In this document: positions 2,024-53,234 of the stretch, one piece after another
Numbering within the stretch: the stretch's first letter is position 1
Layout: each line of letters begins with the position of its first letter
Assembly (NCBI GenBank): GCA_043771175.1
Contig: JAYVHO010000011.1
Coordinates: forward strand, 12,352-76,351
Direction of reading: 5' to 3'
DNA from: a bacterium
Lineage (GTDB): Bacteria; Patescibacteriota; Minisyncoccia; Phycocordibacterales; UBA1006
Length of the DNA stretch: 64,000 bases
The notes under the pieces: generated by a model
What the model was told of the DNA's origin: nothing
What the model saw: the letters and a program-made list of their open reading frames with translations, nothing else
Databases searched by the model: none
Made by a program: the position numbers and the translations under genes

Positions 2024-2032
2024 AGTATATCA
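2024..2032 (-). promoter_or_regulatory. Extended -10 box TGATATACT
   Basis: 9 nt before ATG 2014; its TGA is the stop codon of 2030..5608. Confidence 0.5.
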
Positions 2033-5000
2033 CTTCTTATCATCTTTCTTTTCATCTTTTTTATCCGGTGCTTCTGCTTTGATTTTAGTTTTATTAAAAC
2101 TTGATGCAACCCTATTTCCATCTTTATCAATTTCCATACCTTGTATTCTATCGGTGAATGCGATGTGCTTATCGCGATATGTAACATCTCTATTTAATTT
2201 ACTCTCCATAGAAACTGCTGCTTTTTGAACACCTTTTTGGACTATTGACCTTGCTCCATCTACAAATGCGCTTCCTGTTGGCACTGCATTTGCCAAGTTA
2301 TTTGACATATCTTTCAACTTCTTTTCTGCAAATGCTTTAGCATTATCAATTTCAAAACTGGCATCATTAAGTGCTTCTGCTGCCATTCTAAAGGTACCCA
2401 GTGTTGCCACTTCAGAAACTCTTCGTGAAATATTATTAATTTTTATCCTCTGATCTTGGGTATGTTTTTTAATATCTTTAAAATCACTCTTTGATTCCTC
2501 TCGTAATTGTTCTTCTTGCTTAGAAACGTTCATATTTTGTTTTTTATACTCAGTATTTTTTGATTCATATTCTTTAAGCTGAACTGCCATTTCATCTTTA
2601 TCTTTTCCAAATTGACGCTCAAGGAATTTATCATATTCTTCCTCTTTATCCTTTTTTTCGTTCATAATTATATTAAGTTTTTCATCAGCATTTTTAGTTT
2701 CTCTCTCTACTTTTTCTTTCAAGTTTTTAAGTCTTTCTTTTTCATCAACAGCGCGTTTCAGTGGAGCTGCATTTGCAGCAGCTGTAGCTTTTAGGGTTGT
2801 GATATCAGCATCAAATGTTGCAATTTTTGCATCATTGTCATTCATCTCAAGCCTATTTGCATCTATTTTAAGTTGTATTGCATCTTTTTCTGGTTGTGTT
2901 GGCGCAACCATTTTCATTTGCTGTAACTGAATATCTTTTTGTTCCAATGTATTCTTGCGGTTTAATAAATTATTTTTATCACCAAGATCTTTAATGCTTT
3001 TTTCAACAGTAATTCTTTGTGCATCCAGCAAATCAAATCTCGTACTTGCCGTATTAAAATCTGTTACTGCATTTGTAATCAAAGCACTTTTTGCAATTGC
3101 ATCATTTTGAGAATTAACAATTCTTTGCACTTGCTGTATTTTTTTTGTAATCGAACCACTATTTTGCTTAATTTCTTCTTCTCTTGTTCTTTTTTCAACT
3201 CCTTCAAACTTTTTTAACTTTTCAATTCTCTCATCCAGATACAGTGTTGGATCAGCTAAAATAGTATTAGCACCATGCGCTGTTTCAAGTGCAACCAATT
3301 TTGCTGCATCATCGCGCTTTGCTTTTTTTTCTTTTTTAATATCATCAGTATCTGTTACCAAATCTGCTACATTATATGTTTTATTTTCAGCAAAATCTTG
3401 AGTGAGTGATGCTTTTGCTTTTCCTATCATTTCTGCAAAGTCAATTTTTGATTGTCTATGCTCTCTCAGTTTTAATGCCTTTGCATTGCGTTCATCAGTT
3501 GTCACAGCAGGCATGTTATTAATTTCTGCTAATGCGAATTCAAACATTTTTCCTTGCGCAGTTTCAATATCAAGAATTCTCTTTATAACACTACTAAGCG
3601 GGTTTTTAATAGGATTTGCACGATAACCATCAACCGCATCTTTTATCCCATTGGTTGCAAAATCAAGTGTTGTATTATCTGAGTATCCTCCATCGATATT
3701 ACTGATTGAGTTTCTCATTTTTTGATTATTTTTATCAAATTCATTAAAGTTTTTTTCATTACCATTAAATGCAGTGTCAACGATATCTTTCTTTTCATCT
3801 TCCATATTCTTTTTTGCTTCATCTCGTTTTACACGTTTTTCTTTCATGGCAATATCAAACTCTTCTTGTTTATCTTTTTTAATTTCATCGGCAAGTTTTT
3901 GATAATATTCATCAACCTTATTACCATGTGCTATTAGCCCTCCTTCACGCCCTTCTTTTATGAACGAAGAAAGATTGTATCCATACCCAAGCGGAATTCT
4001 TCCAACATCCAAATAATCTTTTCCAAAGATTTTTGTACTTTCAAAATCAACACCAGTATCAAGTTTCATACCAACCTTTTCTCCATATTTTTTAAATCCA
4101 CCCAATTTTTTACCCAAATCACGTGCATCCCATGATCCTTCTTTCCCATATTTTTGCATGCTCTTCATAGTATTTCCGCGTAAAAGTTGAAGGCGATTTG
4201 AAATTGCATTTCCTTTACCCGTTGCCATATTCATACGAGCTTGTCGTGCAACAGCTGCACCTTGTCCAAGTGTTTTACTCCCTGCAAACGCTGCGCCAAG
4301 TGTTGACCGTGCTGCCAGTCCAGCCCCACCCATCACCAGTCCTCCCACTGCCCCCACCACGCTTTTAGCGCCAGATGCCAAAAATTCGCCAAATGATGTA
4401 GAAAACTTATCGGTAACTTTTTTTGTCATAATAACAATTCCAAAAACAATTATGAGTGGAATCATCCAAAAAATTAACTCTTTGAAAAGTACATCCGCTG
4501 AAGCCCCTGGAGCAATAGTTGCGCTTGAAGAGGTAAACACAATTAAGTTAATAGAAACCACAGTTAGATACATCATAAATAAAAACACCGCTGGCTGAAA
4601 TGCCATTTTTGCAAGATTTGAAGTATATGATTCAAATCCAATTTCTTTGAGTGCTGGTAGATCAAACATTTTTTTAAGCCACGGAATATTTACTGATGAT
4701 AAAAAAGCAAGCGGCGATGCAATCATTAAAAACCAAAGACCAAACGTTCGCGCAAAAAAATAAAATGCAATATTTAAAAACATGTATATCATAAAAATAT
4801 ACATAATACTTCCAATAATAAGATAACTATAAATTACTACCCAACTACTATTAAAAGCACTCAAAGTATTACTACTACCTCCAATGGCAGTAACCAACCT
4901 TAAGGCATTAGATTTATTGATAACAGCAGCAGTAATAGATCTGACTTTCAGTGGAAACCCTGCCCCATCAAATTTTGCAACGTTACCATCTACTGAAGGA

Positions 5001-5608
5001 ATATCGCTTTCTTGCAAATCCATCGCCCTATAAAAAACGCGCGCTGTAATGTTTCCTCCATCTATTACTACTTTCACAAAAAATAAACTAAAATTAATTA
5101 ACAGTGCAGCAATCGCGATACTAATTAACTGCTTTTTCCATGTATCTCCTCCTTTATTTACTATCATGTTCCCCGCAATAGTTAAAAGTATCATGATAAA
5201 AAAGATATTAATAAAGTCTCGTATCATCGCCCACCCCTGAGTAATCCACCCTTGCTGGTTATTATACGTTAAAGATTCCAATGTATATGCAATAATAATG
5301 TCCAATATCCAACCAGCAAATTTTACTAATGCTGCTGATGTTTGAAATATAATCCAAAAAATTCCAAATACGGTACACTGTACAATAGAAGTAAACACAC
5401 TAAATCCTTCACATTCAGTTGGCACCTGAGCATATGCAATGTTAACGTTGGTATTAATATGGAAACTCTTTGAAACCTTATTCTGAACTTCAATTTCTTT
5501 AATTTGAAGTGTCACCGGCGCCACCATAAACAGTGCCACACTTGCCATAAAAAATCCTGCCAACATTTTTGCAGAAATAATTTTTTTAAGCTTTGCAAAC
5601 ACGTTCAT
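2030..5608 (-). CDS. Large polytopic membrane protein with ~700-aa Lys/Glu-rich coiled-coil tail (possibly TrbL/VirB6-like)
   Basis: 1192-aa ORF; N-terminal signal-like segment, many hydrophobic helices in first ~440 aa, Gly/Ala-rich segment, then K/E/D/N-rich heptad-like sequence; TGA stop. Confidence 0.8.
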   Translation of the reverse strand: MNVFAKLKKIISAKMLAGFFMASVALFMVAPVTLQIKEIEVQNKVSKSFHINTNVNIAYAQVPTECEGFSVFTSIVQCTVFGIFWIIFQTSAALVKFAGWILDIIIAYTLESLTYNNQQGWITQGWAMIRDFINIFFIMILLTIAGNMIVNKGGDTWKKQLISIAIAALLINFSLFFVKVVIDGGNITARVFYRAMDLQESDIPSVDGNVAKFDGAGFPLKVRSITAAVINKSNALRLVTAIGGSSNTLSAFNSSWVVIYSYLIIGSIMYIFMIYMFLNIAFYFFARTFGLWFLMIASPLAFLSSVNIPWLKKMFDLPALKEIGFESYTSNLAKMAFQPAVFLFMMYLTVVSINLIVFTSSSATIAPGASADVLFKELIFWMIPLIIVFGIVIMTKKVTDKFSTSFGEFLASGAKSVVGAVGGLVMGGAGLAARSTLGAAFAGSKTLGQGAAVARQARMNMATGKGNAISNRLQLLRGNTMKSMQKYGKEGSWDARDLGKKLGGFKKYGEKVGMKLDTGVDFESTKIFGKDYLDVGRIPLGYGYNLSSFIKEGREGGLIAHGNKVDEYYQKLADEIKKDKQEEFDIAMKEKRVKRDEAKKNMEDEKKDIVDTAFNGNEKNFNEFDKNNQKMRNSISNIDGGYSDNTTLDFATNGIKDAVDGYRANPIKNPLSSVIKRILDIETAQGKMFEFALAEINNMPAVTTDERNAKALKLREHRQSKIDFAEMIGKAKASLTQDFAENKTYNVADLVTDTDDIKKEKKAKRDDAAKLVALETAHGANTILADPTLYLDERIEKLKKFEGVEKRTREEEIKQNSGSITKKIQQVQRIVNSQNDAIAKSALITNAVTDFNTASTRFDLLDAQRITVEKSIKDLGDKNNLLNRKNTLEQKDIQLQQMKMVAPTQPEKDAIQLKIDANRLEMNDNDAKIATFDADITTLKATAAANAAPLKRAVDEKERLKNLKEKVERETKNADEKLNIIMNEKKDKEEEYDKFLERQFGKDKDEMAVQLKEYESKNTEYKKQNMNVSKQEEQLREESKSDFKDIKKHTQDQRIKINNISRRVSEVATLGTFRMAAEALNDASFEIDNAKAFAEKKLKDMSNNLANAVPTGSAFVDGARSIVQKGVQKAAVSMESKLNRDVTYRDKHIAFTDRIQGMEIDKDGNRVASSFNKTKIKAEAPDKKDEKKDDKK

Positions 5609-6431: not shown

Positions 6432-9400
6432 TTAATAAAATGAAACTTTAGATGGATCATAATCATTAATACTCTTACTAAAGTAGAAGGCGGAACAACT
6501 AAATCCTTTATATAATTCAGACACCTCTTTGGTAAATATACCTTTAATGGTGTTCCAATTCAGTACAGCGTTGAGAATAGGTATACCTGCAGCCCATGCA
6601 GATTTTGCACTCTTTTCAAGATCATCTTTACTAAGACCTTTGGAATCAAAATCTTTATCCCATTTTCTACCTAGAACCAAGCCTGTTTCTGCAGTTTGAT
6701 TATATGCAAGTGCACAATAGTATGCAATTTCACTATCCTTCATTTCAAGATCAAAATTTTGCGCGGATAAAGTATTTAATCTTTTTATTGCATCTTGCGT
6801 GTCTTTTTCATTTATTTTTGTTTGCACTGCATACTGTTCTGGAATATTGTATGTGATAGTTGTTGACTGTGAAGTACTACAACTATTAATTTGATCTTGT
6901 GTGGGAGTGCTACCTGGTGATAATTGATATTTACTTTGTAAGCATGATGTTAATGCTCCAAGATCTGAATAATTTATACCAGTTCCTGAGGTTGAAACGG
7001 AACCACTATTACCAAGTCCTGTCTTAACTAAAGTTATTGTTTGATTATTAAGTGTAAATTGTATGTCATTTCCCATTAATTCATCTCTTCCCTCGCCAGT
7101 TGAACCAAAATTTTGTTTCAAAAATTCTAAATCTTTGTTTTCATCAATATTATCCGTATTTATTGAATTATAGAAATTCATGACTATCGGTGAACCAGTA
7201 ATACTAAGAGGTAAATATTTTGATCTTTTACTTCCACAATCTTGAACAGATTTTTTTAATTGCTTATATAATGCAACTGTTTTTTTAGATTCGTAAGATG
7301 GGGAACCTTCATATCCAGTATCTGAAAAATATGGATAATATGAATAGATTTCGTTAATTAATGTAATTCTATCTTGTGCAGTTAATGCTTCACCTAACTC
7401 GTTCACCTCTGAGTCCCAAACTTCTTTGATTTTTTTAAGCCTTTCAAGGATAGTAAGCCTATTACTTAATGCCGAATTTAACGATTCCTTATTACTAAAC
7501 AAATTTTCGGACTGATTAACTAAACTTCTATATTTAAAATCATCTGCTGTTTTATAATATATATCTGTTGGTCGTATTTTTTGATTCATATAGTCAAGCA
7601 CCTTACCTGTACCTGAATCGAGTAAGCCTACAAAATTTTCTGCTTGATTAACTACTGTATCATCTTTATTGCTAAAAATTCTTGTCTGTACACGAGATCT
7701 TGCCCGTGTATATTTTGTAGTAAACCGTGCTTCCCATCCTTTATCCGGCCCTGGAACACATACATCTAACTTTCTAACAACATATATCGATTGTTCATTT
7801 AAGTTAATGATTGATTGAAATATGTTAATATCATTTTCAAGTTTTGTAATATTATTAAAACCACATTCCCCCATTGCACTCGACAGTTTTATTAGTTCTT
7901 CTGCATGTTCAACCATATCACCTTCAATTTGAGCTTTTTTCTTATCATCATTTGTTAATATTTTTTTTGGGTCTTCTATTCCTAACTTTTTCAAACATTC
8001 TATTGATTCTGGGGGTAAATCAGTAATCAACACTTGGCTTGCTTGTTCTCCTGTTATATATTGATCTTGATTAGTATCAGCATTTAATGCCTCAGGTGCT
8101 CTTTCTTGCAAATCAATCAAATCTTTATTCGAAATTACGTCAACTTTTTGTTTTATTGCGTCAATTGCTCCAGTTATTTTTTTCTTTGCCCATGCTTCGC
8201 CCAAAGGCACACCTTGCTTAATTACTTCATCTTTAAGTCTTGACACTGTATATGATAGCAAATCTTGCCATGTATCAACTTGTTGTGACTGTGTAATTGG
8301 GGTGTTAGTAACTTGTCTAAGCATTCCTTCGACAATAGTACCTGGTAGTGTGGTGGCATACACTGAGCACGTTTCTGCCAAATATTCTGGAGTGTATAAA
8401 CCTGGGTTAATACCATTTTGTTTAAATTCTACGGTTGGCAATTGAATAGGAGTAAATGTTTTTGGAGCAATTTGTCCTGGTGCCTGATATAAGTTTTCAT
8501 TAGAATAACCCCCATCACCATTTTGTGCATTAACCACAGTACTAAATGAAAGTTTTTCTTTCAAGAATTCTCCAAGATTATAGCCAAGTGTGCCCTTTAG
8601 TGTTGACTGCTGTGAAGCGTCGTCAGTTTTTGGAAGTGGGTCGGTTGCTTTTGGTGCACGTGGTTGCACCTTTGCTTTAAGTTTTAAACAAGTTTTTTGA
8701 GATTGAAAACCTTGATTGTTTGCAAGTTCTTGGGATAATTCTACCCTTTTTGCTAATAACTTTGTATAAATATCTTGTTGTGTATTAACATATTTACCAA
8801 GTAAATTATTATTCTCTTTTGTTGAAAGACTATATTTTGTCCAAAAATTTTTAAGGTTTTCTTTTCTAATTTTTATTTCATTTTCAGAGTTTCCATATCC
8901 TGCTCCATTTACAAAATATTTCCATTTGGTTTTATCTTTTAATATACTGCCTTCCAATGTATTAATTAGTTTTTGGTTTGGGTTTGTTGTAACGCCGGTA
9001 TAGTTTGAAACAAGACCCAAGACTACTTGCTTGGCGTAATATGAAGTTGGCTCTGCTATTTCTTTATTGATAAATGCATCCAACTCATCTCTAAACTGAG
9101 TTCGTTTAAGTTGCTCATAGGTGAGTTCTGTGTTTTGAACAAAAGATGGTTTCCCCTTAAAACCTGAGTACGCCCATGAAACTGTCTCTTGTATTGTTTT
9201 ATCTAGAAATGACTGTGCTAACTTAATAGCAATTGTTTTAAGAACTCCATTATTAAAGAATTCTTTTACTTCTATAACTTTTGATGTGGAACTGTTTGCA
9301 ACTTCAACCGGCTGCAATACTGCATTAAAAAAATCTTGGAATTGAGCTTCTGCCATTAAGTCTTTTTGAGTTCCCATAATACAAAAACTACAGACAATTA

Positions 9401-9473
9401 CAGATATAAACAGTGCTATAAATTTTTTCTTATATTCAGATGACATATATCTATTGCTTCTTAGCATATTCAA
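6432..9473 (-). CDS. Large secreted or surface protein (1013 aa), no recognised domain
   Basis: N-terminal KKKFIALFISVIVCSFCIMG signal/anchor; overlaps upstream gene by 23 nt. Confidence 0.8.
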   Translation of the reverse strand: MNMLRSNRYMSSEYKKKFIALFISVIVCSFCIMGTQKDLMAEAQFQDFFNAVLQPVEVANSSTSKVIEVKEFFNNGVLKTIAIKLAQSFLDKTIQETVSWAYSGFKGKPSFVQNTELTYEQLKRTQFRDELDAFINKEIAEPTSYYAKQVVLGLVSNYTGVTTNPNQKLINTLEGSILKDKTKWKYFVNGAGYGNSENEIKIRKENLKNFWTKYSLSTKENNNLLGKYVNTQQDIYTKLLAKRVELSQELANNQGFQSQKTCLKLKAKVQPRAPKATDPLPKTDDASQQSTLKGTLGYNLGEFLKEKLSFSTVVNAQNGDGGYSNENLYQAPGQIAPKTFTPIQLPTVEFKQNGINPGLYTPEYLAETCSVYATTLPGTIVEGMLRQVTNTPITQSQQVDTWQDLLSYTVSRLKDEVIKQGVPLGEAWAKKKITGAIDAIKQKVDVISNKDLIDLQERAPEALNADTNQDQYITGEQASQVLITDLPPESIECLKKLGIEDPKKILTNDDKKKAQIEGDMVEHAEELIKLSSAMGECGFNNITKLENDINIFQSIINLNEQSIYVVRKLDVCVPGPDKGWEARFTTKYTRARSRVQTRIFSNKDDTVVNQAENFVGLLDSGTGKVLDYMNQKIRPTDIYYKTADDFKYRSLVNQSENLFSNKESLNSALSNRLTILERLKKIKEVWDSEVNELGEALTAQDRITLINEIYSYYPYFSDTGYEGSPSYESKKTVALYKQLKKSVQDCGSKRSKYLPLSITGSPIVMNFYNSINTDNIDENKDLEFLKQNFGSTGEGRDELMGNDIQFTLNNQTITLVKTGLGNSGSVSTSGTGINYSDLGALTSCLQSKYQLSPGSTPTQDQINSCSTSQSTTITYNIPEQYAVQTKINEKDTQDAIKRLNTLSAQNFDLEMKDSEIAYYCALAYNQTAETGLVLGRKWDKDFDSKGLSKDDLEKSAKSAWAAGIPILNAVLNWNTIKGIFTKEVSELYKGFSCSAFYFSKSINDYDPSKVSFY

Positions 9474-26614: not shown

Positions 26615-28273
26615 TTAACCCAATTCTTTATAGTTTTGTGCTAAATCTAATAATTCTTCTGGTATTTTTGAGGTTACCAGAACATGTTCCCCTGTTTGAA
26701 TAAACAAATCTATATTTTGGGTTACTGGGGTGTGGTGACTTTGGGTTAAAATTTGTGCATCCTTAATTTTTTTTGAGAAAGAAATAATATCATCGTACCC
26801 AAGAGATGGCATGAGTTTTTCATATTCCTTAATTGTTGCTTGAATACTTTCAATATTTTTGTTGGTTTGAACTAAATTATTGTATTCAGATTCCAATAGC
26901 CCCTTCAATCTTAGATCTTCTATGTCTTTATCTTCTGATGTAAATCCACTCCACGCCCATTTGCTTACCGTTTGCTTTTGTGAATTTACTGAAATACTAT
27001 TTTGAAGCTCTTCTATTGTTAGAGTAACACGCTGCAAATCTTGTCGCTTTGTTTGCAGTTGTGAATTTACTGAATCAAATATAATGTATGGCTCACCTGA
27101 CCCCATGTGTATATATCCCGTGATTTCATTATTGATGCTTGGCTTTCGTGCCTCATATGAAGTTTTGAAAAATTCTAATGCTTTACTATCTTTATTCCAT
27201 GTTTCTTGGTGCCGCAGTATATCAAGTGGATTGCGTGGAATTCTTTGGACACCGTGTTCTGTTATATATTCATTTATTTTTCTTCTTATTTTTTGTTTGT
27301 TTTGTTCTTTTTCAAACTGATTGATTAAAAAGTTTTGTTTTGCTTCATTATTTTTGTCTGAATACTCATTATTCAAATTTTCTGCACCATCTATCTTTTT
27401 ATAGTAATCTGAAATCATAATCTTTACACTATTTTGTAGTGCTTGAGTTAATGCTTTATCTGCAATTTCTTTACCATAAGTATTGGTAATTTCATTAAAA
27501 TTACTTGGAATTAAATTAACCTGCTGAATATTTTCAATATTCCCATTCTTGATGTCATACCACATATTACCAATCATGATTTTTTCTCGTTCTGCTTTTT
27601 GATGATTATATCTTCCCACATTTTGTTCTAGAGTTTCTGGTGAATAATGCATTACGGGCAAAGCATTTTGAAACTGAATAGTGAGAGCCTCAAGAAGTTC
27701 TTCATGTTCATTTTTCTGAGTTATTTCTTCTATAATCTTCGGAATTTCAAGATGTATATTACCTGTAGTAAGATGATCAATCTCAATTTTAAGTGCGGTT
27801 ATTTCTTGATCAAGCATGAGAACTTCCTGTTCAAGTGTTTCAATTTCAGTATTTTTACGTCCTGATTCTTGGTTGAGCTTTTCAATTTCTTCAAAAATTT
27901 CAATAAAGTCTGTGCTGTTTTGAATATCTTGATTGGTTATGGTGGTATCTTTTATTTTTATTTGTTTAATATCACCTTGTATTTCTAAATGTATTTGATT
28001 AAGCATTTCGTCTATGGTTGTTTTTTCCTCTTGCAAGACTTCTCTTTCTTTATTTTTTTGTTCAATACTTGCTTGTTTTTCTACTACCGCACGATTTTTA
28101 TCTTCAATTTTTTTTATGATATCTTTTACTTTCGTTTGATTTTCTGCCGATTCCTTTTGAATTCTTTCTTGTACGTTTGCATCAACTTTTTGGTGTGCTT
28201 CTTTTCGTAATCGTTGAATTTTTTCAAATGAAGTTTCAGCAATATTATTTTCCTGAGCATTGTGTTGATCCAT
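26615..28273 (-). CDS. Hypothetical coiled-coil protein (552 aa)
   Basis: N-terminal ~190 aa K/E/Q-rich heptad-like, then globular C-terminal part; no domain recognised. Confidence 0.65.
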   Translation of the reverse strand: MDQHNAQENNIAETSFEKIQRLRKEAHQKVDANVQERIQKESAENQTKVKDIIKKIEDKNRAVVEKQASIEQKNKEREVLQEEKTTIDEMLNQIHLEIQGDIKQIKIKDTTITNQDIQNSTDFIEIFEEIEKLNQESGRKNTEIETLEQEVLMLDQEITALKIEIDHLTTGNIHLEIPKIIEEITQKNEHEELLEALTIQFQNALPVMHYSPETLEQNVGRYNHQKAEREKIMIGNMWYDIKNGNIENIQQVNLIPSNFNEITNTYGKEIADKALTQALQNSVKIMISDYYKKIDGAENLNNEYSDKNNEAKQNFLINQFEKEQNKQKIRRKINEYITEHGVQRIPRNPLDILRHQETWNKDSKALEFFKTSYEARKPSINNEITGYIHMGSGEPYIIFDSVNSQLQTKRQDLQRVTLTIEELQNSISVNSQKQTVSKWAWSGFTSEDKDIEDLRLKGLLESEYNNLVQTNKNIESIQATIKEYEKLMPSLGYDDIISFSKKIKDAQILTQSHHTPVTQNIDLFIQTGEHVLVTSKIPEELLDLAQNYKELG

Positions 28274-32100: not shown

Positions 32101-32823
32101 TTAGATAAGTGAGTTAATAAATTTTCCAAGCTCAACTGGCTTGGTAGAAAGTGATCCAATCAAAAAACCTTCAACATCAAATTGATGAAGTTCTTGGGGT
32201 GAAAATTCTGACACAGAGCCTCCATACAAAATCCTGTTCGTGCTGGTAATTTCTTTAATTTTTAAAATCGTTGCCGTGCAGTGTCTAACTGCATCTGCAT
32301 GAGAAATTAAACTTTGCTCATCTTTGTTGGTAGAAATTAACCACTGAGGTTCATACGTAACATATGTCACAAAGTTTTTGGTTACAATTTTACTTGCAAT
32401 TTTCTCAACTTCACGGTAGAAAATATCCATTGCTTTTAAAGAAGGATCTGTTTCTCCAACACAAATTAAAACAGTTACATTATCTGGAACACAATCAAGT
32501 GTTTGAAGCATAGTTTCTAAAGTCATTCCAGATCTTCGCTCATCGCTGTGACCAATCAATCCACAATTAATTTGAAAATCTTTCATGTGCCGTGGATCCA
32601 CAGAACCAGTTCCCCCACCTTGAGTGATTTTAAGACCTTGAATTCCACAATGAAATCCGTTATTTTTTTCTTTACTTTCTGCGACTACTGTGGATAAAAA
32701 AAGTGGTGAGACAAACATGGTTGCCCCCATAACTGCGTTATTTACGATGATGGACATGACGTCAATGTACTCACTACTGTTACTAAACGAGTTCTTGGGA
32801 TTGAGAAATATTTTATATGACAT
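32101..32823 (-). CDS. tpiA: Triosephosphate isomerase (divergent)
   Basis: LNPKN, GHSDERR, YEPQW, GGSV motifs collinear with TIM; adjacent to pgk. Confidence 0.78.
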   Translation of the reverse strand: MSYKIFLNPKNSFSNSSEYIDVMSIIVNNAVMGATMFVSPLFLSTVVAESKEKNNGFHCGIQGLKITQGGGTGSVDPRHMKDFQINCGLIGHSDERRSGMTLETMLQTLDCVPDNVTVLICVGETDPSLKAMDIFYREVEKIASKIVTKNFVTYVTYEPQWLISTNKDEQSLISHADAVRHCTATILKIKEITSTNRILYGGSVSEFSPQELHQFDVEGFLIGSLSTKPVELGKFINSLI

Positions 32824-39454: not shown

Positions 39455-39567
39455 ATAATAAAAAGTATATTTATCCACTCGTCAATAGCACCTTTTTAAA
39501 ACCCTTAGTTTATAATGTATATAAGCACGTGTCGATGTGCATGAGAATTAATCAAAGTCTACACATT

Positions 39568-39840
39568 ATGAAAAAACAAGATATCATCAACATGTTCGCA
39601 GAAATGCTCGATATAACCAAAGTTAAATCAACTGAAGTTGTTGAAACTCTTTTTGACACAATTTCTAAGGAAATGAAAAAAGGAGGAAGCGTTGATATCG
39701 CAGGATTTGGAAGTTTCACCGCAGCTGAAGTAAATGCTTCAGTTAAGAGAAATCCAAAGACCGGAGCAGCTGTTAACGTTCCTGCTCACAAGAAGCCTAA
39801 GTTCCGCCCTGCTAAGGCTCTTAAAGAACTCGTGTACTAA
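39568..39840 (+). CDS. hup: DNA-binding protein HU
   Basis: GFGSF..RNPKTG..V..A..P.F.P..ALK pattern, 90 aa. Confidence 0.93.
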   Translation: MKKQDIINMFAEMLDITKVKSTEVVETLFDTISKEMKKGGSVDIAGFGSFTAAEVNASVKRNPKTGAAVNVPAHKKPKFRPAKALKELVY

Positions 39841-41488: not shown

Positions 41489-41845
41489 TTAAATCACTTC
41501 CACAAAAGTGATTTTTGTTTTGTGTTTAAAAATAAGCACCCTGACCCCGTATATTTTAATTGAAAATGAACAATATGTTTTCCATAATTTTTCTTTAAAG
41601 ACAGACTTGATTCTTTGGATCTTATTCTTGTCTATGGCACCAAGTGGGTCAACATGATCCTCAAGGTCATTATGAACAATCAGGGACTTTACTTCATATA
41701 TATACAAAGTTTTGTCCTTAATAGAAACAATATCTATCTCCCCTTTTTGACCATAAACATTTCTCTCAACAATAATGTGTCCTTTAAAAATCAGTGCGTC
41801 TGCAACCATATCTTCTGCCTTGTTTCCTTTATCACGTGTATGCAT
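41489..41845 (-). CDS. yraN: YraN family (UPF0102) endonuclease-like protein
   Basis: KGNKAEDMVADAL..ERNV..KGEIDIV..YIYEVK pattern. Confidence 0.8.
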   Translation of the reverse strand: MHTRDKGNKAEDMVADALIFKGHIIVERNVYGQKGEIDIVSIKDKTLYIYEVKSLIVHNDLEDHVDPLGAIDKNKIQRIKSVFKEKLWKTYCSFSIKIYGVRVLIFKHKTKITFVEVI

Positions 41846-41851
41846 TTCTTA

Positions 41852-41857
41852 ATTATA
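41852..41857 (-). promoter_or_regulatory. -10 box TATAAT, leaderless spacing
   Basis: 6 nt before ATG 41845. Confidence 0.5.
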
Positions 41858-41862
41858 CTTTT

Positions 41863-42111
41863 TGTCCATTATTGTTACTATTAATTTCTAACAGACTTAC
41901 TTGTTATTTTATTATGGACAAAAAGACATTTTACTATTGGACATTATAAAGGACATAAAAAAGTTATCCACATTTTATGGGTTTATACACCCACTTATCC
42001 ACAGTGATTTTTATAAACTGTTCAAAACTGTGGATAAACCTGTTTATAACCCATTTTCAAATGGACATATGTCCTTTATCTTAGCTCATTATGTCCAATA
42101 TATTATGGACA
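41863..42111. repeat. Array of TGGACA/TGTCCA iterons including palindrome GGACATATGTCC
   Basis: Sites at 41863, 41915, 41938, 41951, 42062, 42069, 42092 and 42106; palindrome 42063..42074. Confidence 0.75.
41964..42037. promoter_or_regulatory. Cluster of three perfect DnaA boxes (TTATCCACA)
   Basis: 41964..41972 (+), 41995..42003 (+), 42029..42037 (-); weaker TTATAAAC-type sites flank box 3. Confidence 0.8.
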
Positions 42112-42155
42112 TAACGGTCATAATATTCTCCACTTTCTTTTTTATATTTATACGC

Positions 42156-42161
42156 TATACT
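42156..42161 (+). promoter_or_regulatory. -10 box TATACT for the tRNA operon
   Basis: 11 nt before tRNA-Gly 5' end. Confidence 0.45.
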
Positions 42162-42172
42162 GTTTTTACTCA

Positions 42173-42243
42173 GCGGGTATGGTTTAGTGGTAGAATGCGT
42201 CCTTGCCAAGGACGAGACAGGAGTTCGATTCTCCTTACCCGCA
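42173..42243 (+). tRNA. tRNA-Gly (anticodon GCC), no encoded CCA
   Basis: Manual cloverleaf: GCGGGTA acceptor, anticodon loop TTGCCAA, T-arm AGGAG-TTCGATT-CTCCT. Confidence 0.9.
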
Positions 42244-42266
42244 CATTGAAGCACTAGCTTCAATAG

Positions 42267-42338
42267 GCACCTGTAGTGGAATGGATATCACGACTGACTT
42301 CGGATCAGTTATTCTAGGTTCGAATCCTAGCAGGTGCA
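42267..42338 (+). tRNA. tRNA-Arg (anticodon TCG), no encoded CCA
   Basis: Manual cloverleaf: GCACCTG acceptor, anticodon loop CTTCGGA, T-arm CTAGG-TTCGAAT-CCTAG. Confidence 0.88.
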
Positions 42339-42355
42339 CTACGATACTCATTAAT

Positions 42356-43828
42356 ATGTTTAATCTCCCTCTTAAAGTTAAAGAACTTGCTCTTTTATTT
42401 CATTCTCATAACTATGAGCTTTTTTTAGTTGGCGGCTCTGTGCGAGATCTACTAATGGATAAAGAACCAAAAGATTACGACTTTACCACCAATGTTTCAC
42501 CAGAAACCATTATCGAGTTAGCGGAAGAAGTTGGGATCAAAGCGGTGTACACCAACACATTTGGCACCGTAACATATGTATTTGAAGAAGAGCCTCTCTT
42601 GTCCCCTCTTCGTGAGTTTCAAATCACTCCTTACAGAAGCGAATCTGTTTATTCTGATGGACGTCATCCAGATACTATTACATGGGCAAATACTGTAGAA
42701 GAAGATCTCAGTAGGAGAGATTTTACTATCAACGCAATTGGTTATAATATGGCAACTGACACACTGATTGACCCTTTTAATGGACAATCTGATATTCTAT
42801 CACGGACACTTTCTGCGGTTGGTGACCCAGATACACGATTCAAAGAAGACTATTTACGTATTTTACGACTTATTCGGTTTACTGCTTCCCTTGATTTTGT
42901 AATTTCACGTGAAACACATGCTGCAGTATTGCCTCTTGTGGCTTTTTTAAAGGACTTATCGGGAGAACGCATACGTGATGAGTTTTTTAAAATGATTGAA
43001 AGCAATAACCCTGAAAATGCTATGAATGTACTTTGTGAAACAGGAGCTTTAGAAGTTCTATTTCCAGAAATTTTTGAAGGGGTTGGGTGCGATCAATCAC
43101 GTAGTCATATATATGATGTGTTTACTCATTGTGTTAAAGCACTTCAAAATGCTGCGGACAACCACTTTCCGTTACATGTGCGACTGGCAGCATTACTTCA
43201 TGATGTGGGAAAACCACGAACAAAGCGCTACGATCCAGCACAGAAACTGTACACTTTTTACGGACACGAAGTAGTTGGTGCAAAAATGTCCGATAAAATC
43301 CTTAAGCGACTTAAAGCTCCACTGGAAACACACGAAAAAGTTGTTACACTGGTCCGTTATCACATGTTTTTATCGGACACAGAAAAAGTAACTCACAGCG
43401 CAGCACGCAGGCTTGTCCGTAATGTAGGCATAGAACTTATTTGGGATCTTATCAATATTAGGAAATGTGACCGAAAGGGGATGGGGAAGACAGAGGAACC
43501 TATTCGACTGCGACAGTTTGAGGTTATGATTGAAGAGGTAATACGTGACCCAGTGTCCGTAAAGCAACTGGCCATTAACGGACATCATCTTATGAACACT
43601 CTTAGTATAAAGCCAGGACCACGCATTGGGTGGACACTACTTGCACTCCTTGAGGAGGTGATTGAAGATCCTTCAAAAAACACCTTGGAATATCTTCTTG
43701 AAAGAGCAGGGGGGTTGGCACGTGAAACTGATCAAAATCTCAGAAAGCTTGGTGAAGAGGGCAGGGAAGCAAAAGACCAAAAAGACGAAGAAGAACGCAA
43801 TATTATCAAAAAAGAGTATCATGTGTAA
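42356..43828 (+). CDS. cca: CCA-adding enzyme / tRNA nucleotidyltransferase with HD domain
   Basis: LVGGSVRDLLM..DYDF, RRDFTINA, ED.LRILR, HDVGK motifs; start ATG 42356. Confidence 0.9.
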   Translation: MFNLPLKVKELALLFHSHNYELFLVGGSVRDLLMDKEPKDYDFTTNVSPETIIELAEEVGIKAVYTNTFGTVTYVFEEEPLLSPLREFQITPYRSESVYSDGRHPDTITWANTVEEDLSRRDFTINAIGYNMATDTLIDPFNGQSDILSRTLSAVGDPDTRFKEDYLRILRLIRFTASLDFVISRETHAAVLPLVAFLKDLSGERIRDEFFKMIESNNPENAMNVLCETGALEVLFPEIFEGVGCDQSRSHIYDVFTHCVKALQNAADNHFPLHVRLAALLHDVGKPRTKRYDPAQKLYTFYGHEVVGAKMSDKILKRLKAPLETHEKVVTLVRYHMFLSDTEKVTHSAARRLVRNVGIELIWDLINIRKCDRKGMGKTEEPIRLRQFEVMIEEVIRDPVSVKQLAINGHHLMNTLSIKPGPRIGWTLLALLEEVIEDPSKNTLEYLLERAGGLARETDQNLRKLGEEGREAKDQKDEEERNIIKKEYHV

Positions 43829-48271: not shown

Positions 48272-48283
48272 TGCGGGTTTTTA
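48257..48283. terminator. Bidirectional intrinsic terminator
   Basis: AAAACCCGCA-GTAA-TGCGGGTTTTT; loop contains the TAA stop. Confidence 0.8.
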
Positions 48284-49246
48284 TATTTCCCGTATCACAT
48301 CAAACCCATTCATGCTCCCCGTAATTGCAAGTCCATGACATTCTTGTGCAATGTGTTGTGATTTTATTTTTCCCGCAAGCACATTAAGCGTGGCGCCTGA
48401 GCCTGCAAAATCGTCTATGAGTAAAATTTTTTGATATTGTGTGTCTTTATAATACTTTGGAATAATCATAGTATTTTGAGCGTTTAAGATACGATCATTG
48501 ATGTCTTTAAGAGATTTTTGCTGCACCATGATAGGTGTTTTTATTTTCTCAATTTCTATAATTGGAAGTGTGAGATTTAAAACATTCTTGAGAACATCCA
48601 TTGCTTGGACTTCTCGCTTTAGTGTTGGTGGAATAAACGCCACAGCATCAATAGCATTATTTGAAATATAGGTAATTACGTCTTGCTTAATATAATTGAA
48701 AACCTCAACTAATATTTCCCTATTTTGTGTTTGTTTTCCATGAAACAACATTTGTGAAAGTTTTGTTTTACCAAATACAGGAATACTATACGGTTGCAAA
48801 TACACCAAAGAATCCAATTGCACATTGCCAGGAAATGAAGCTTTTATTTTTTGAGTTGCATTAATAATGTTACCAGTACTATATTTTTTATATTCTTGCT
48901 CATATTCATGAGCTTTCTCTGGCACATTAAACCCTCGTTTTTCACACCACATAACAAATGCAGATATTCCTTCTTGTTTTTGCCCATCGGGAGTAATCAT
49001 GTAAAAATTTGAAACTAGATCAGGCAAATCATTGTATTCTTTGCTTATTCTAGCGATGCTATGTTTTTGAATACGATAATACACTTTTGGAGCACTTCCA
49101 ATTTTTTCTACCACGCCTTCTTGGGTAAGTTTTTTAAGAACCCTGTGTACCATTACCAAACCAACACCAATTTTCTGGCTTAATATGCCGGGTTTTTCTT
49201 GGGGAACCATTGAAAGATATTCAATTATTTTCTCTTCCGTGTTCAT
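48281..49246 (-). CDS. Winged-helix plus phosphoribosyltransferase-fold protein (PurR-like or ComF-like)
   Basis: N-terminal wHTH (GILSQKIGVGLVMVHRVLKKL), C-terminal PRT motif ILLIDDFAGSGATL; start ATG 49246. Confidence 0.7.
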   Translation of the reverse strand: MNTEEKIIEYLSMVPQEKPGILSQKIGVGLVMVHRVLKKLTQEGVVEKIGSAPKVYYRIQKHSIARISKEYNDLPDLVSNFYMITPDGQKQEGISAFVMWCEKRGFNVPEKAHEYEQEYKKYSTGNIINATQKIKASFPGNVQLDSLVYLQPYSIPVFGKTKLSQMLFHGKQTQNREILVEVFNYIKQDVITYISNNAIDAVAFIPPTLKREVQAMDVLKNVLNLTLPIIEIEKIKTPIMVQQKSLKDINDRILNAQNTMIIPKYYKDTQYQKILLIDDFAGSGATLNVLAGKIKSQHIAQECHGLAITGSMNGFDVIREI

Positions 49247-49253
49247 GGTACAT

Positions 49254-49259
49254 AGTATA
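49254..49259 (-). promoter_or_regulatory. -10 box TATACT, leaderless spacing
   Basis: 7 nt before ATG 49246. Confidence 0.45.
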
Positions 49260-49494
49260 TAGTGAATTATATACCATGTCAAATCACTAGCTATAAATTA
49301 AATGATTTCTCGCGATAGAGATTACAAAAGAATAGTTAGTTACTTGCCTATAAAGAAATCAATTTATAAACATATTGTTTCTTAACAAAAGATACTCTTT
49401 TTTATAAACAAATTTTATACGCTGTCAAATATGCTATAGTAATTTCATACTAATAATTATTGTCTTTTCACGAGATTGCTTTGGTTTAGGTCAT

Positions 49495-51713: not shown

Positions 51714-51741
51714 TAAAAAAATCCCTCATGGGATTTTTTTA
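51714..51741. terminator. Bidirectional intrinsic terminator
   Basis: AAAAAAATCCC-TCAT-GGGATTTTTTT. Confidence 0.75.
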
Positions 51742-53076
51742 TATCTCTTGCTCTTTTAGTGTAGTTAAAAAATTCTTATCATAAGATATTCCACATTGCG
51801 TTTTTGAAATACACACTGAATAGAGTGTTTTTGTTTCATCAATTTTGTATTCAAATACTTGTTCATCAATCAAGAGGGTTGCGGTAATTTTTTGATTTGC
51901 TGGTAAACGCAAAAATTCAGCCATGATTTGATTTTGATATGTTAAATATGAACTTGCATCAGTGACGGTAAATAATATTCCACGAGGCTGTTTTGGAGCT
52001 TGAATGATATATAAATCTTCTATACCAGCTGCCACACGTGTTGATTCTTGTATTCCTTGATTATTAAGATAAATTTTTCGAAGAAGCAATTCTGCTTCTC
52101 CTGCAGATGGTTCAAACATCACTATTTTATTTGAGTTTTTTACCAGTTCAAGCACGGGAGCCTTTAAATAAATTCCTGACTGCACTGTAACGGGCTTTGG
52201 GTTTATCAGGGAAACAGTATCAGTTAAAAACAACACCATAATGGCAACAATCCCAAAAAATACAATAAGTATAGAAAGTTGTTTATCTATTTTATCTTTT
52301 TTTGATTGCTCAAATAATGTGTAAAATTTTTCTTTTTCTCGTGCTTCACGCAGAAGCAGCGCAATTTTACCAGGACTACTTTCTCCTGTTATATAAGAAA
52401 GCTCTTTGGTTAATGTTTCAATTTCAAGAGCTGGTGTGATGTGAAGTGGATTATTTGAAAGTTCTTTTTTAAACGCGACAAACTGTTCATTTTCCTTTGC
52501 GTAGCCTCGCTGCACCATGATGCGTAAAATTTCTGCTGTAAGATCAGGGATATCATTATTATGTGAACCTGACATAGCGGCGTGGCCATCATATGGAACA
52601 TTGTGAAAGTGAAGTGTTCGCAGTGATCCTGCTTCTTTGTGAGAGATTTTTTCAATAGACGGGTCATTACTGAGTTCAATTAAAAATGTATCGGTGAATT
52701 TCTCAAGCATATCCCATGCAAATGCCTCAATACCAAACATGCTATTTTTTTCCTCATAAGTATGGTCAGAGCTGTGATACAAATACGGTGCAATCATGAT
52801 GTGAGGCACTTTAGTGAGCACATGAGACTGTATCACCATAGCAGAACCAACACCATGAGAAATGATAAGAAATGGGTCACGAAGCGATCTGGTAATGAGT
52901 TCAAATTCAAGTTTTTGAGCATCAAACGCCTCTTTGGTAGCAACTTCCGTCAAGTCAATCAAAAATGATTTTACATCAAAAATCTCCTGTAATTTCTGAG
53001 CAACATCTTGATACCAAAGCTTTTGTGCAGGCTCACAGTTTGCCTCTGTCACAATAAATACTTGATTGATCATCAT
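51739..53076 (-). CDS. Bipartite membrane protein: possible alpha/beta-hydrolase-like N-domain, one TM, extracytoplasmic C-domain
   Basis: IISHGVGSA and later DGH weakly resemble a hydrolase triad; TM LSILIVFFGIVAIMVLFL; start ATG 53076 behind TATACT. Confidence 0.6.
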   Translation of the reverse strand: MMINQVFIVTEANCEPAQKLWYQDVAQKLQEIFDVKSFLIDLTEVATKEAFDAQKLEFELITRSLRDPFLIISHGVGSAMVIQSHVLTKVPHIMIAPYLYHSSDHTYEEKNSMFGIEAFAWDMLEKFTDTFLIELSNDPSIEKISHKEAGSLRTLHFHNVPYDGHAAMSGSHNNDIPDLTAEILRIMVQRGYAKENEQFVAFKKELSNNPLHITPALEIETLTKELSYITGESSPGKIALLLREAREKEKFYTLFEQSKKDKIDKQLSILIVFFGIVAIMVLFLTDTVSLINPKPVTVQSGIYLKAPVLELVKNSNKIVMFEPSAGEAELLLRKIYLNNQGIQESTRVAAGIEDLYIIQAPKQPRGILFTVTDASSYLTYQNQIMAEFLRLPANQKITATLLIDEQVFEYKIDETKTLYSVCISKTQCGISYDKNFLTTLKEQEI

Positions 53077-53082
53077 GGTCAT

Positions 53083-53088
53083 AGTATA
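53083..53088 (-). promoter_or_regulatory. -10 box TATACT, leaderless spacing
   Basis: 6 nt before ATG 53076. Confidence 0.45.
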
Positions 53089-53234
53089 TCGTATTTTTGA
53101 CAAAAATTTCTAATATCTCTTTAAAACGTTTTTAAAAAATGTAAAGACTTGCACCAAAATGAAGTGTGATACCATTTGTTCACGAGTCAGAAATTTCCGC
53201 ATGACCACCACTCCCGCATTCTGAAACGCTAAAG

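Follow-up and report, generated by a model that had tools for sequence, protein, structure and literature searches.

To our knowledge, E. coli (datA, DARS) and B. subtilis (DnaA-box clusters, DBCs) are the only bacteria in which it is understood how DnaA-binding sites away from oriC control the initiation of replication, and we know of no such control in the Candidate Phyla Radiation (CPR), whose tiny genomes lack many known regulators. Here we describe a DnaA-box cluster in a 64,000-nt stretch of the patescibacterial contig JAYVHO010000011.1 (the window), located in the 327-nt spacer (41846-42172) between yraN on the minus strand and a tRNA-Gly(GCC) gene on the plus strand. We regard it, with moderate confidence, as a conserved, origin-proximal secondary cluster of the B. 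subtilis DBC or E. coli datA/DARS kind, not as an origin.

B. subtilis carries six DBCs outside oriC, mostly oriC-proximal, which restrain initiation, interact genetically with Spo0J/Soj and in several cases regulate neighbouring genes (PMC3245932). In E. coli, datA and DARS2 pair DnaA boxes with IHF/Fis sites and require these accessory proteins (PMC5742627), and datA, which lies just downstream of the glyVXY tRNA-Gly operon, is controlled by read-through transcription (PMC10950094).

The locus resembles a DBC in having several consensus boxes in intergenic, non-coding DNA that is origin-proximal and distinct from oriC, in sharing the origin-proximal domain with parS sites and in occupying, as DBCs can, a divergent promoter region; by analogy, the action to be expected of it would be DnaA sequestration that restrains initiation. 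Its distance of 26.4 kb from dnaA corresponds to a few percent of the chromosome, since the contig of a close relative is 668 kb long. The neighbours of DBCs vary by Bacillus species (PMC3245932), whereas this cluster is fixed beside tRNA-Gly(GCC) over deep divergence; it is also compact and carries a GGACA/TGTCC motif not described for DBCs.

Like datA, the element is a non-coding box cluster next to tRNA-Gly, and tRNA-Gly(GCC) is transcribed towards the boxes in seven of 12 relatives. The datA neighbours glyVXY are likewise GCC-anticodon tRNA genes. Boxes would also be combined with accessory-protein sites in both cases, the binder being putative here. Unlike datA, in which the essential boxes share one orientation and are accompanied by IHF, the present boxes converge, the tRNA genes of the window point away from them, and the distance to oriC is 26 kb rather than about 470 kb. 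No homology to datA is evident, so the adjacency to tRNA-Gly may be a coincidence. With the E. coli DARS core the cluster has in common three boxes of which one is opposite (+, +, -), a likeness of orientation pattern, the DARS boxes being also fixed in spacing (PMC5742627), and with DARS2 the flanking sites, which here would serve a putative accessory protein (IHF and Fis in DARS2). DARS sites differ in lying mid-replichore, and their ADP-release mechanism is known only in proteobacteria. The DARS-core and glyVXY-datA parallels may be functional or coincidental.

Anatomy of the box cluster and its partner motif

Three perfect and two weaker boxes make up the cluster, which spans 86 bp (41964-42049), the perfect ones lying within 74 bp (Table 1; positions are window coordinates, sites beyond the window are given as window-equivalent, and L004, L008 and so on label the loci of relatives). 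An inverted repeat with 26-nt arms (77% complementary) accompanies the spacer between the convergent boxes, and the inverted pair TTATAAAC/GTTTATAA is found at 42011-18 and 42042-49. The only other perfect box in the 64-kb window, at 32689, is inside a coding open reading frame (ORF). With 0.87 perfect boxes expected per 64 kb, three within 100 bp were never observed in 300 simulated first-order Markov sequences modelled on the window. By eye, we saw no IHF consensus WATCAANNNNTTR in the spacer.

The boxes are surrounded by eight GGACA/TGTCC sites. An unbiased k-mer test of the spacer against the remaining contig ranks GGACA first among 5-mers (8 versus 0.3 expected, p = 1e-9) and GGACAT/ATGTCC first among 6-mers (6 versus 0.07 expected), and the simulated maximum was 6 GGACA sites per 250 bp. 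Over the whole window TGGACA is not enriched (29 versus 30.6 expected), with six of the 29 copies in the spacer. GGACA is also, independently, the top k-mer of the CCA-adding enzyme gene (11 versus 1.3 expected; CGGACA 8 versus 0.17, p = 2e-11), where the sites occupy all three frames and both strands. Together, yraN, the spacer and the CCA gene hold 21 sites across 1.9 kb. Five of the sites in the CCA gene are positionally conserved in L004 and use codons that we judged by eye to be rare; left-array sites 41863 and 41939 are likewise kept there. A 15-nt inverted repeat in the left array, CTTTTTGTCCATTAT / ATTATGGACAAAAAG, brackets the least stable 40-mer of the spacer (41875-41915; 99.3rd percentile), which is located 5' of boxes 1 and 2.

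The initial annotation of this DNA had reported three perfect boxes at 41964, 41995 and, inverted, 42029 in the gap between yraN and the tRNA genes, and these coordinates hold; the palindrome GGACATATGTCC and the inverted pair it had listed are present too. It had counted eight TGGACA/TGTCCA sites, a number that is right for GGACA/TGTCC, with six TGGACA and two AGGACA among them. The statement that the sites usually sit within ATTATGGACA was too strong, as the exact ATTATGGACA occurs only twice in the spacer. A resemblance to LexA boxes, also raised there, found no support: GGAC-N4-GTCC occurs once in 73 kb, with no copy upstream of uvrD, ruvB, ruvC or recJ. Finally, it had named a motif common to all intergenic regions as an outcome that would undo its proposal, and GGACA stays at background level outside the locus. 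Of the possibilities it had offered, those of an operator array or of a site at which DnaA is titrated or exerts regulation fit better, with the core conserved in relatives and GGACA locally enriched.

Several identities for the GGACA motif were rejected. WhiA, with the core motif GAYACRCY/GACAC (PMC11701221, PMC3781837), finds a match in the CCA gene alone, and there for no more than the 5-mer GACAC. As a -35 element of a promoter array, GGACA has the wrong spacing to -10-like hexamers, and promoter matches equal the shuffle expectation. Derivation from parS by mutation is contradicted by differing positions in the codon alignment, and the similarity to the tRNA-Gly anticodon arm (AAGGAC/GTCCTT) is limited to 6-8 nt. 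There are leads for a binder. A 333-aa protein (48281-49282, minus strand) has a sub-threshold winged-helix match of the TrmB type (E = 0.0036), and TrmB-family genes are also close to the CCA gene in L008 and L012; an HU gene 2 kb from the cluster (39529-39840) and, if the genome has it, WhiA with its 5-mer match are further leads.

Table 1. Features of the box cluster, its neighbourhood and the parS-like sites of related loci (parS-like: at most two mismatches to GTTTCACGTGAAAC)
Feature	Locus	Position	Strand	Remarks
Left GGACA array	window	41858-41958		sites 41863(-), 41916(+), 41939(+), 41951(+)
DnaA box 1, perfect TTATCCACA	window	41964-41972	+	L004 ortholog TTATCCCCA, same relative position
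Weak DnaA box 1.5, TTATACACC	window	41984-41992	+	fits relaxed consensus TTATNCAC-; identical in L004
DnaA box 2, perfect TTATCCACA then G (TTATCCACAG)	window	41995-42003	+	most conserved element of the module
AT-rich 25-nt spacer between convergent boxes	window	42004-42028		rightward boxes 1, 1.5, 2; leftward boxes 3, 4
DnaA box 3, perfect TTATCCACA, inverted	window	42029-42037	-	L004 has AGTGGATAA there
Degenerate DnaA box 4, TTATAAACA	window	42041-42049	-	2 mismatches; L004 ortholog is a good box, CTATCCACA
Right GGACA array	window	42057-42123		sites 42063, 42070, 42092, 42107; palindrome GGACATATGTCC (42063-42074), pair TTATGTCCA-N8-TGGACATAA (42089-42114), weak copy ACGGTCATAA
yraN/UPF0102 gene	window	41489-41845	-	Pfam match; left neighbour; GGACA sites inside at 41713 and 41778
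tRNA-Gly(GCC)	window	42173-42244	+	right neighbour of the box cluster
tRNA-Arg(TCG)	window	42267-42339	+	3' of tRNA-Gly(GCC)
CCA-adding enzyme gene	window	42356-43828	+	11 GGACA sites (8 CGGACA); two parS-like sites (42494-42507, 42902-42915)
parS-like sites, 15	L008	7977-11467
parS-like sites, 10	L007	9022-10972
parS-like sites, 9	L012	9071-12667		five perfect
parS-like sites, 9	L030	4019-7039
parS-like sites, 5	L009
parS-like sites, 0	L013			dnaA locus
parS-like site, 1	L014			dnaA locus

Conservation beside tRNA-Gly(GCC) and the parS zone

In L004, which is syntenic throughout and has a CCA enzyme 72% identical, the box core is 73% identical to that of the window, versus 49% and 35% for the spacer flanks. 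The two share a near-perfect 50-nt block, AAAAGTTATCC(A/C)CA...GGTTATACACCCACTTATCCACAGTG, with box 1.5 within GGTTATACACCCACTTATCCACAGTG. Where CCA identity is down to 50-57% (L007, L008, L009, L012), tRNA-Gly(GCC) still has beside it a perfect box accompanied by weaker ones. Box 2 with its following G, TTATCCACAG, recurs in L004, L008, L009, L012 and L034, and a TTATACACA-type 'box a', comparable to box 1.5, in L007, L020 and L023. The tRNA-Gly(GCC)/tRNA-Arg(TCG) pair adjoins the boxes in all syntenic relatives, and DnaA boxes are found at most 300 bp from tRNA-Gly(GCC) in 11 of the 12; the twelfth, L016, shows no box in a sequence that reaches only about 700 bp upstream. A scan of metagenomes yielded mostly distant loci and only eight that keep the tRNA-Gly(GCC)/tRNA-Arg(TCG)/CCA synteny; seven of these eight have boxes beside the tRNA (L017, L019, L020, L023, L028, L030, L034), and L016 is the eighth. 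No DnaA boxes stand beside tRNA-Gly(GCC) in distant non-syntenic loci, and a GTDB genome scan for the CCA protein gave a single locus, L003, which is non-syntenic. Cluster and dnaA are 26.4 kb apart in this contig; in the L008/L013 genome, the only other one with both on a single contig, the interval is about 24 kb. Judged by these comparisons, the box cluster appears to be under selection.

In more distant relatives GGAC/GTCC or AGACA/TGTCT directly abuts the first box, as aaGGACAtatttTTGTCCtTTATCCACA in L017 and similarly in L028, L007, L030, L023 and L020. The composite GTC[CT]-N-TTATNNNC[AC] occurs 12 times in 270 kb versus 2.7 expected, nine of the 12 falling in about 4 kb of cluster regions, and the GGACA motif is absent from the box clusters flanking dnaA. 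The AGACA...TGTCT pairs of L009, L012 and L030 resemble tRNA terminators, and RGACA counts in these three loci are therefore inflated. Terminator hairpins were not predicted in the window spacer, and an Rfam search of the locus returned tRNAs and no other known RNA element.

The genes around the boxes are less constant. tRNA-Gly points away from the boxes in three genomes and towards them in seven, and yraN is missing from the L009 neighbourhood; since this geometry varies, we argue that chromosomal position, and not one promoter, is what the element is maintained for. The same variation bears on a purely transcriptional explanation, in which DnaA and a GGACA-binding regulator would control the divergent yraN and tRNA-Gly/tRNA-Arg/cca promoters with no role in replication. 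Such an operator is possible but unlikely. The boxes do lie in a divergent promoter region, minus-strand consensus-type promoter matches overlap boxes 1 and 2, the palindromic GGACA sites look operator-like, and several B. subtilis DBCs regulate their neighbours (PMC3245932). However, the number of promoter-like matches (4 versus 3.1 in shuffles) is that of random sequence, there is no single conserved promoter target among the relatives, and the GGACA sites reach 1.5 kb into the CCA coding sequence, unlike an operator.

In the relatives the cluster is embedded in a parS array, with many of its sites within the yraN and CCA coding sequences (Table 1). The parS on the VSRET codon stretch of the CCA gene (42902 in the window) is conserved in five of six genomes, and in L008 (8424-8475) an inverted pair of DnaA-box-like sites, TTTTCCACA, symmetrically encloses a perfect parS, GTTTCACGTGAAAC, the whole being a palindrome of 50 nt beside yraN. 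The window as a whole contains 26 matches to the parS 16-mer with at most three mismatches, versus 3.2 expected, most of them at 40.9-63.6 kb. Within its spacer a search for parS (TGTTNCACGTGAAACA) found no site with at most two mismatches to the 14-mer core. The window lineage keeps two degenerate parS-like sites, both in the CCA gene (42494 and 42902) and at the same positions as in L004.

This exchange of motifs could be read to mean that in this lineage the GGACA array partly replaces parS as a zone resembling a centromere, at which a partition or condensation protein nucleates, the boxes being a neighbouring but separate element. In support of that, relatives have 5-15 parS sites across yraN-CCA, where the window and L004 have two, with GGACA enrichment over the same interval, and the five in-gene GGACA sites kept between the window and L004 fall on rare codons. 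We nonetheless find it quite improbable: GGACA and parS positions do not coincide in the codon alignment, the 85 kb examined contains no ParB or candidate binder, and the abutment of RGACA/TGTCC on a DnaA box in relatives points to a functional link with DnaA. Fixed beside tRNA-Gly(GCC), provided with a partner motif and set within a parS array, the cluster is, as far as its sequence can tell, a novel form of DnaA-box cluster outside oriC.

The dnaA-linked origin and the GC3 switch

The initial annotation correctly noted that the window has no dnaA or dnaN; yet dnaA begins about 4.5 kb past its right end. On the same 99.8-kb contig the block jag-yidC-yidD-rnpA-rpmH (minus strand) followed by dnaA and dnaN (plus strand) occupies about 65.9-71.3 kb, with dnaA at 68.47-69.87 kb, 26.4 kb to the right of the cluster. 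The nearest named relatives of this dnaA are 'Candidatus Paceibacterota/Pacebacteria' metagenome-assembled genomes (MAGs). Upstream of dnaA, two perfect and at least three one-mismatch boxes fall within about 90 bp (TCATCCACA, TTATCCACA, TAATCCACA, TTATGCACA and an inverted TTATCCACA), and the dnaA-dnaN spacer has one perfect and three one-mismatch boxes (TTATCCACA, TTATCCCCA, ATATCCACA, TCATCCACA), so that the contig carries three separate clusters: one in the yraN/tRNA-Gly spacer and one on each flank of dnaA. The last box of the dnaA-dnaN spacer is followed by CCC and then by triplets of which 11 of 12 have a central T (counted by eye), which on the top strand corresponds to a DnaA-trio. 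A basal unwinding system (BUS) has been defined by at least three NAN trios within 16 bp of a box, the DnaA-trio being 3'-NAN-5' (PMC8287927), and this spacer offers four consecutive triplets. The AT-rich stretch after its boxes (GCTATTACTTTTATTTATTT...AGTAATATAC) is conserved in L014 and is in the 99th percentile of duplex instability.

GC skew places the switch at the same spot. Plain cumulative skew is undecisive because it follows gene orientation; it has no sharp minimum, only a plateau between about 49 and 71 kb. We used G/C at third codon positions (GC3) with gene orientation as a covariate, and fitted change-points by residual sum of squares (RSS). The best single change-point for the contig extended to 73 kb falls at 69,872, where dnaA ends and the replication term of the fit goes from -0.12 to +0.22 (RSS 109 to 88). 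Orientation-corrected GC3 skew is -0.21 at 32.9-41.85 kb, -0.08 at 42.2-69.9 kb and +0.22 after dnaA; with the change-point placed at the cluster, it is negative on both sides, without a sign change. In the close relative L014/L015 (DnaA 89% identical, with 10 kb available to either side) the switch is unambiguous: the sign turns where dnaA ends, from -0.17 to +0.17 (RSS 55 to 14), and does so in genes of both orientations.

The initial annotation had proposed the cluster as a candidate oriC away from dnaA, and had accepted a skew switch and a dnaA-linked box cluster elsewhere as grounds for giving this up. By that standard the proposal is refuted, since both are found at dnaA-dnaN. Its reading of gene strands was correct in that all genes up to 32.8 kb are on the minus strand; it had taken this to fit an origin between about 33 and 42 kb. 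An origin at 32.8 kb, the sharpest strand switch, was rejected too: the box at 32689 falls within the TIM ORF, no cluster is present in the spacer there, and a GC3 change-point at this site gives no better fit (RSS 107.8 versus 109.4). Between the cluster and dnaA the plus strand carries roughly two thirds of the coding sequence (CCA, PNPase, UvrD, type II secretion system-type ATPase, RuvB, YebC, RuvC, PBP), and gene orientation converges on the dnaA block, the genes right of dnaN, like those between cluster and dnaA, being head-on to forks from dnaA-dnaN.

Features of an origin are nevertheless present at the cluster. Like a canonical dnaA-linked oriC with its BUS (PMC8287927), it combines a box cluster with nearby AT-rich DNA, including the easily melted 40-mer, and a few NTN triplets, four of which, trio-like and enough under a lenient form of the BUS rule, follow box 2. 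Genes diverge in orientation at 41.85/42.17 kb, with those at 42-66 kb mostly pointing away, parS sites abut the cluster in relatives, and GC3 steps towards zero there in L012, L009 and, weakly, in the window. That the cluster is the true oriC, or a second initiation site alongside dnaA-dnaN, is still very improbable. The GC3 sign change is at the dnaA-dnaN spacer in the window contig and in L014/L015, with none at the cluster; linkage to dnaA/dnaN is absent; and the geometry is wrong, with the AT-rich region 5' of boxes 1 and 2 and the trio-like run ended by an inverted box 25 nt away. A bipartite-looking origin flanks dnaA 26 kb away and has a conserved unwinding-type stretch. In addition, the block of about 6 kb from jag to dnaN is inverted between this contig (L010 13150-18434) and its close relative L014 (7748-13194; DnaA 89% identical), while its flanks stay put (an 83-aa ORF and PBP on one side, a 517-aa ORF on the other), and one possible reading is an inversion centred on the origin. 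For origin prediction in MAGs the locus holds a warning, as the origin here coincides neither with the densest run of perfect boxes nor with the point where genes locally diverge.

Genes of a type IV secretion system (T4SS; PrgI, TraC-like, TraG/VirB4-like) occur at most 10 kb from dnaA in L013 (1350-4240) and L014 (1-2657). These loci agree with the finding that T4SS genes of Patescibacteria cluster near dnaA (PMC12102498).

Several observations weigh against our view of the cluster as a secondary, non-origin element. The window contig offers only 3.2 kb (three genes) right of dnaA for the skew test, and the L008/L013 genome shows no detectable skew switch at dnaA. In L012 the best GC3 change-point (about 9364) is at the cluster, going from about -0.15 to about 0 (RSS 41.5 to 26.5), and L009 has a step there as well (about 9831; RSS 64.7 to 51.1), neither with a sign change. 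In the window a step at about 41846 is the best second change-point, though weak (RSS falls by about 6). A GC3 step at the cluster is not explained by a pure titration site. Forks that leave dnaA would run head-on into most genes of the 26 kb between it and the cluster. Together with the L008/L013 result, the steps and the head-on genes keep a small probability for an alternative or ancestral initiation site. DnaA binding and function at the cluster are, moreover, predictions for an uncultivated, metagenome-assembled lineage. Finally, DnaA itself might bind the GGACA sites weakly, as a distinct class of its targets: TTGTCCAWW differs from a DnaA box at 2-4 positions and resembles the high-GC-type box TTGTCCACA, found as a box in L017, but it is without the CACA end. 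We consider it more likely that they are targets of a separate, putative protein, because the motif has a sharp consensus of its own.

Possible role of the cluster

A mechanism of the DBC or datA/DARS kind would work as follows. DnaA would occupy the three high-affinity and two weaker boxes as two convergent arrays around the 25-nt AT-rich spacer, and a putative sequence-specific protein would bind the flanking GGACA/TGTCC sites. The resulting DnaA-accessory complex, about 26 kb from the dnaA-dnaN oriC and in the parS (centromere) zone, would tune the amount of active DnaA that reaches oriC. The mode could be titration, as in DBCs; alternatively ATP would be hydrolysed or the nucleotide exchanged, as in datA and DARS. 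Altered transcription of yraN and of tRNA-Gly/tRNA-Arg/cca would be a likely by-product.

A bolder proposal starts from the combination of a DnaA-box module with a GGACA partner motif inside a parS centromere, about 25 kb from oriC. It holds that a Paceibacteria-like CPR clade has independently evolved a datA/DARS-like hub that couples ParABS to the control of DnaA. We think this distinctly unlikely. In a more radical form the hub could be an alternative initiation site, which, if true, would explain why skew falls towards zero between cluster and dnaA in several genomes. For the secondary box cluster that we favour, the significance would lie in its being a concrete candidate for tying initiation to segregation in CPR, given its conserved position, compactness, partner motif and parS zone.

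The locus also has some traits of a mobile element. Boxes, short repeats and an AT-rich stretch resemble the iteron origins of plasmids, tRNA genes adjoin, a tyrosine recombinase gene is 3.4 kb away, and TTATGTCCA-N8-TGGACATAA is shaped like a recombinase core site. A relic of a plasmid or phage iteron origin, or an attachment site beside a tRNA gene, is all the same extremely improbable. The repeats are 9-14 nt long, in both orientations and at spacings of 9 to 156 nt, rather than direct repeats of about 17-22 bp; no rep gene is present within 10 kb on either side; and the locus, including the Xer-like recombinase, is syntenic in relatives down to 50% protein identity. A dif/Xer site or att core was rejected on inspection, as no 11 + 6 + 11 nt arrangement could be fitted, and the Xer-like gene is syntenic housekeeping.

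Elsewhere in the window, the ORFs 2030-5608, 6432-9473, 26615-28273 and 51739-53103 (1192, 1013, 552 and 454 aa) gave no Pfam match at E <= 0.001. In L017, four perfect 88-bp tandem repeats (3341-3691) upstream of the CCA gene each contain a DnaA-box-like TGTGGATAT and an end that resembles a tRNA T-arm; they may be genuine, as an array of tRNA fragments, or may stem from the assembly.

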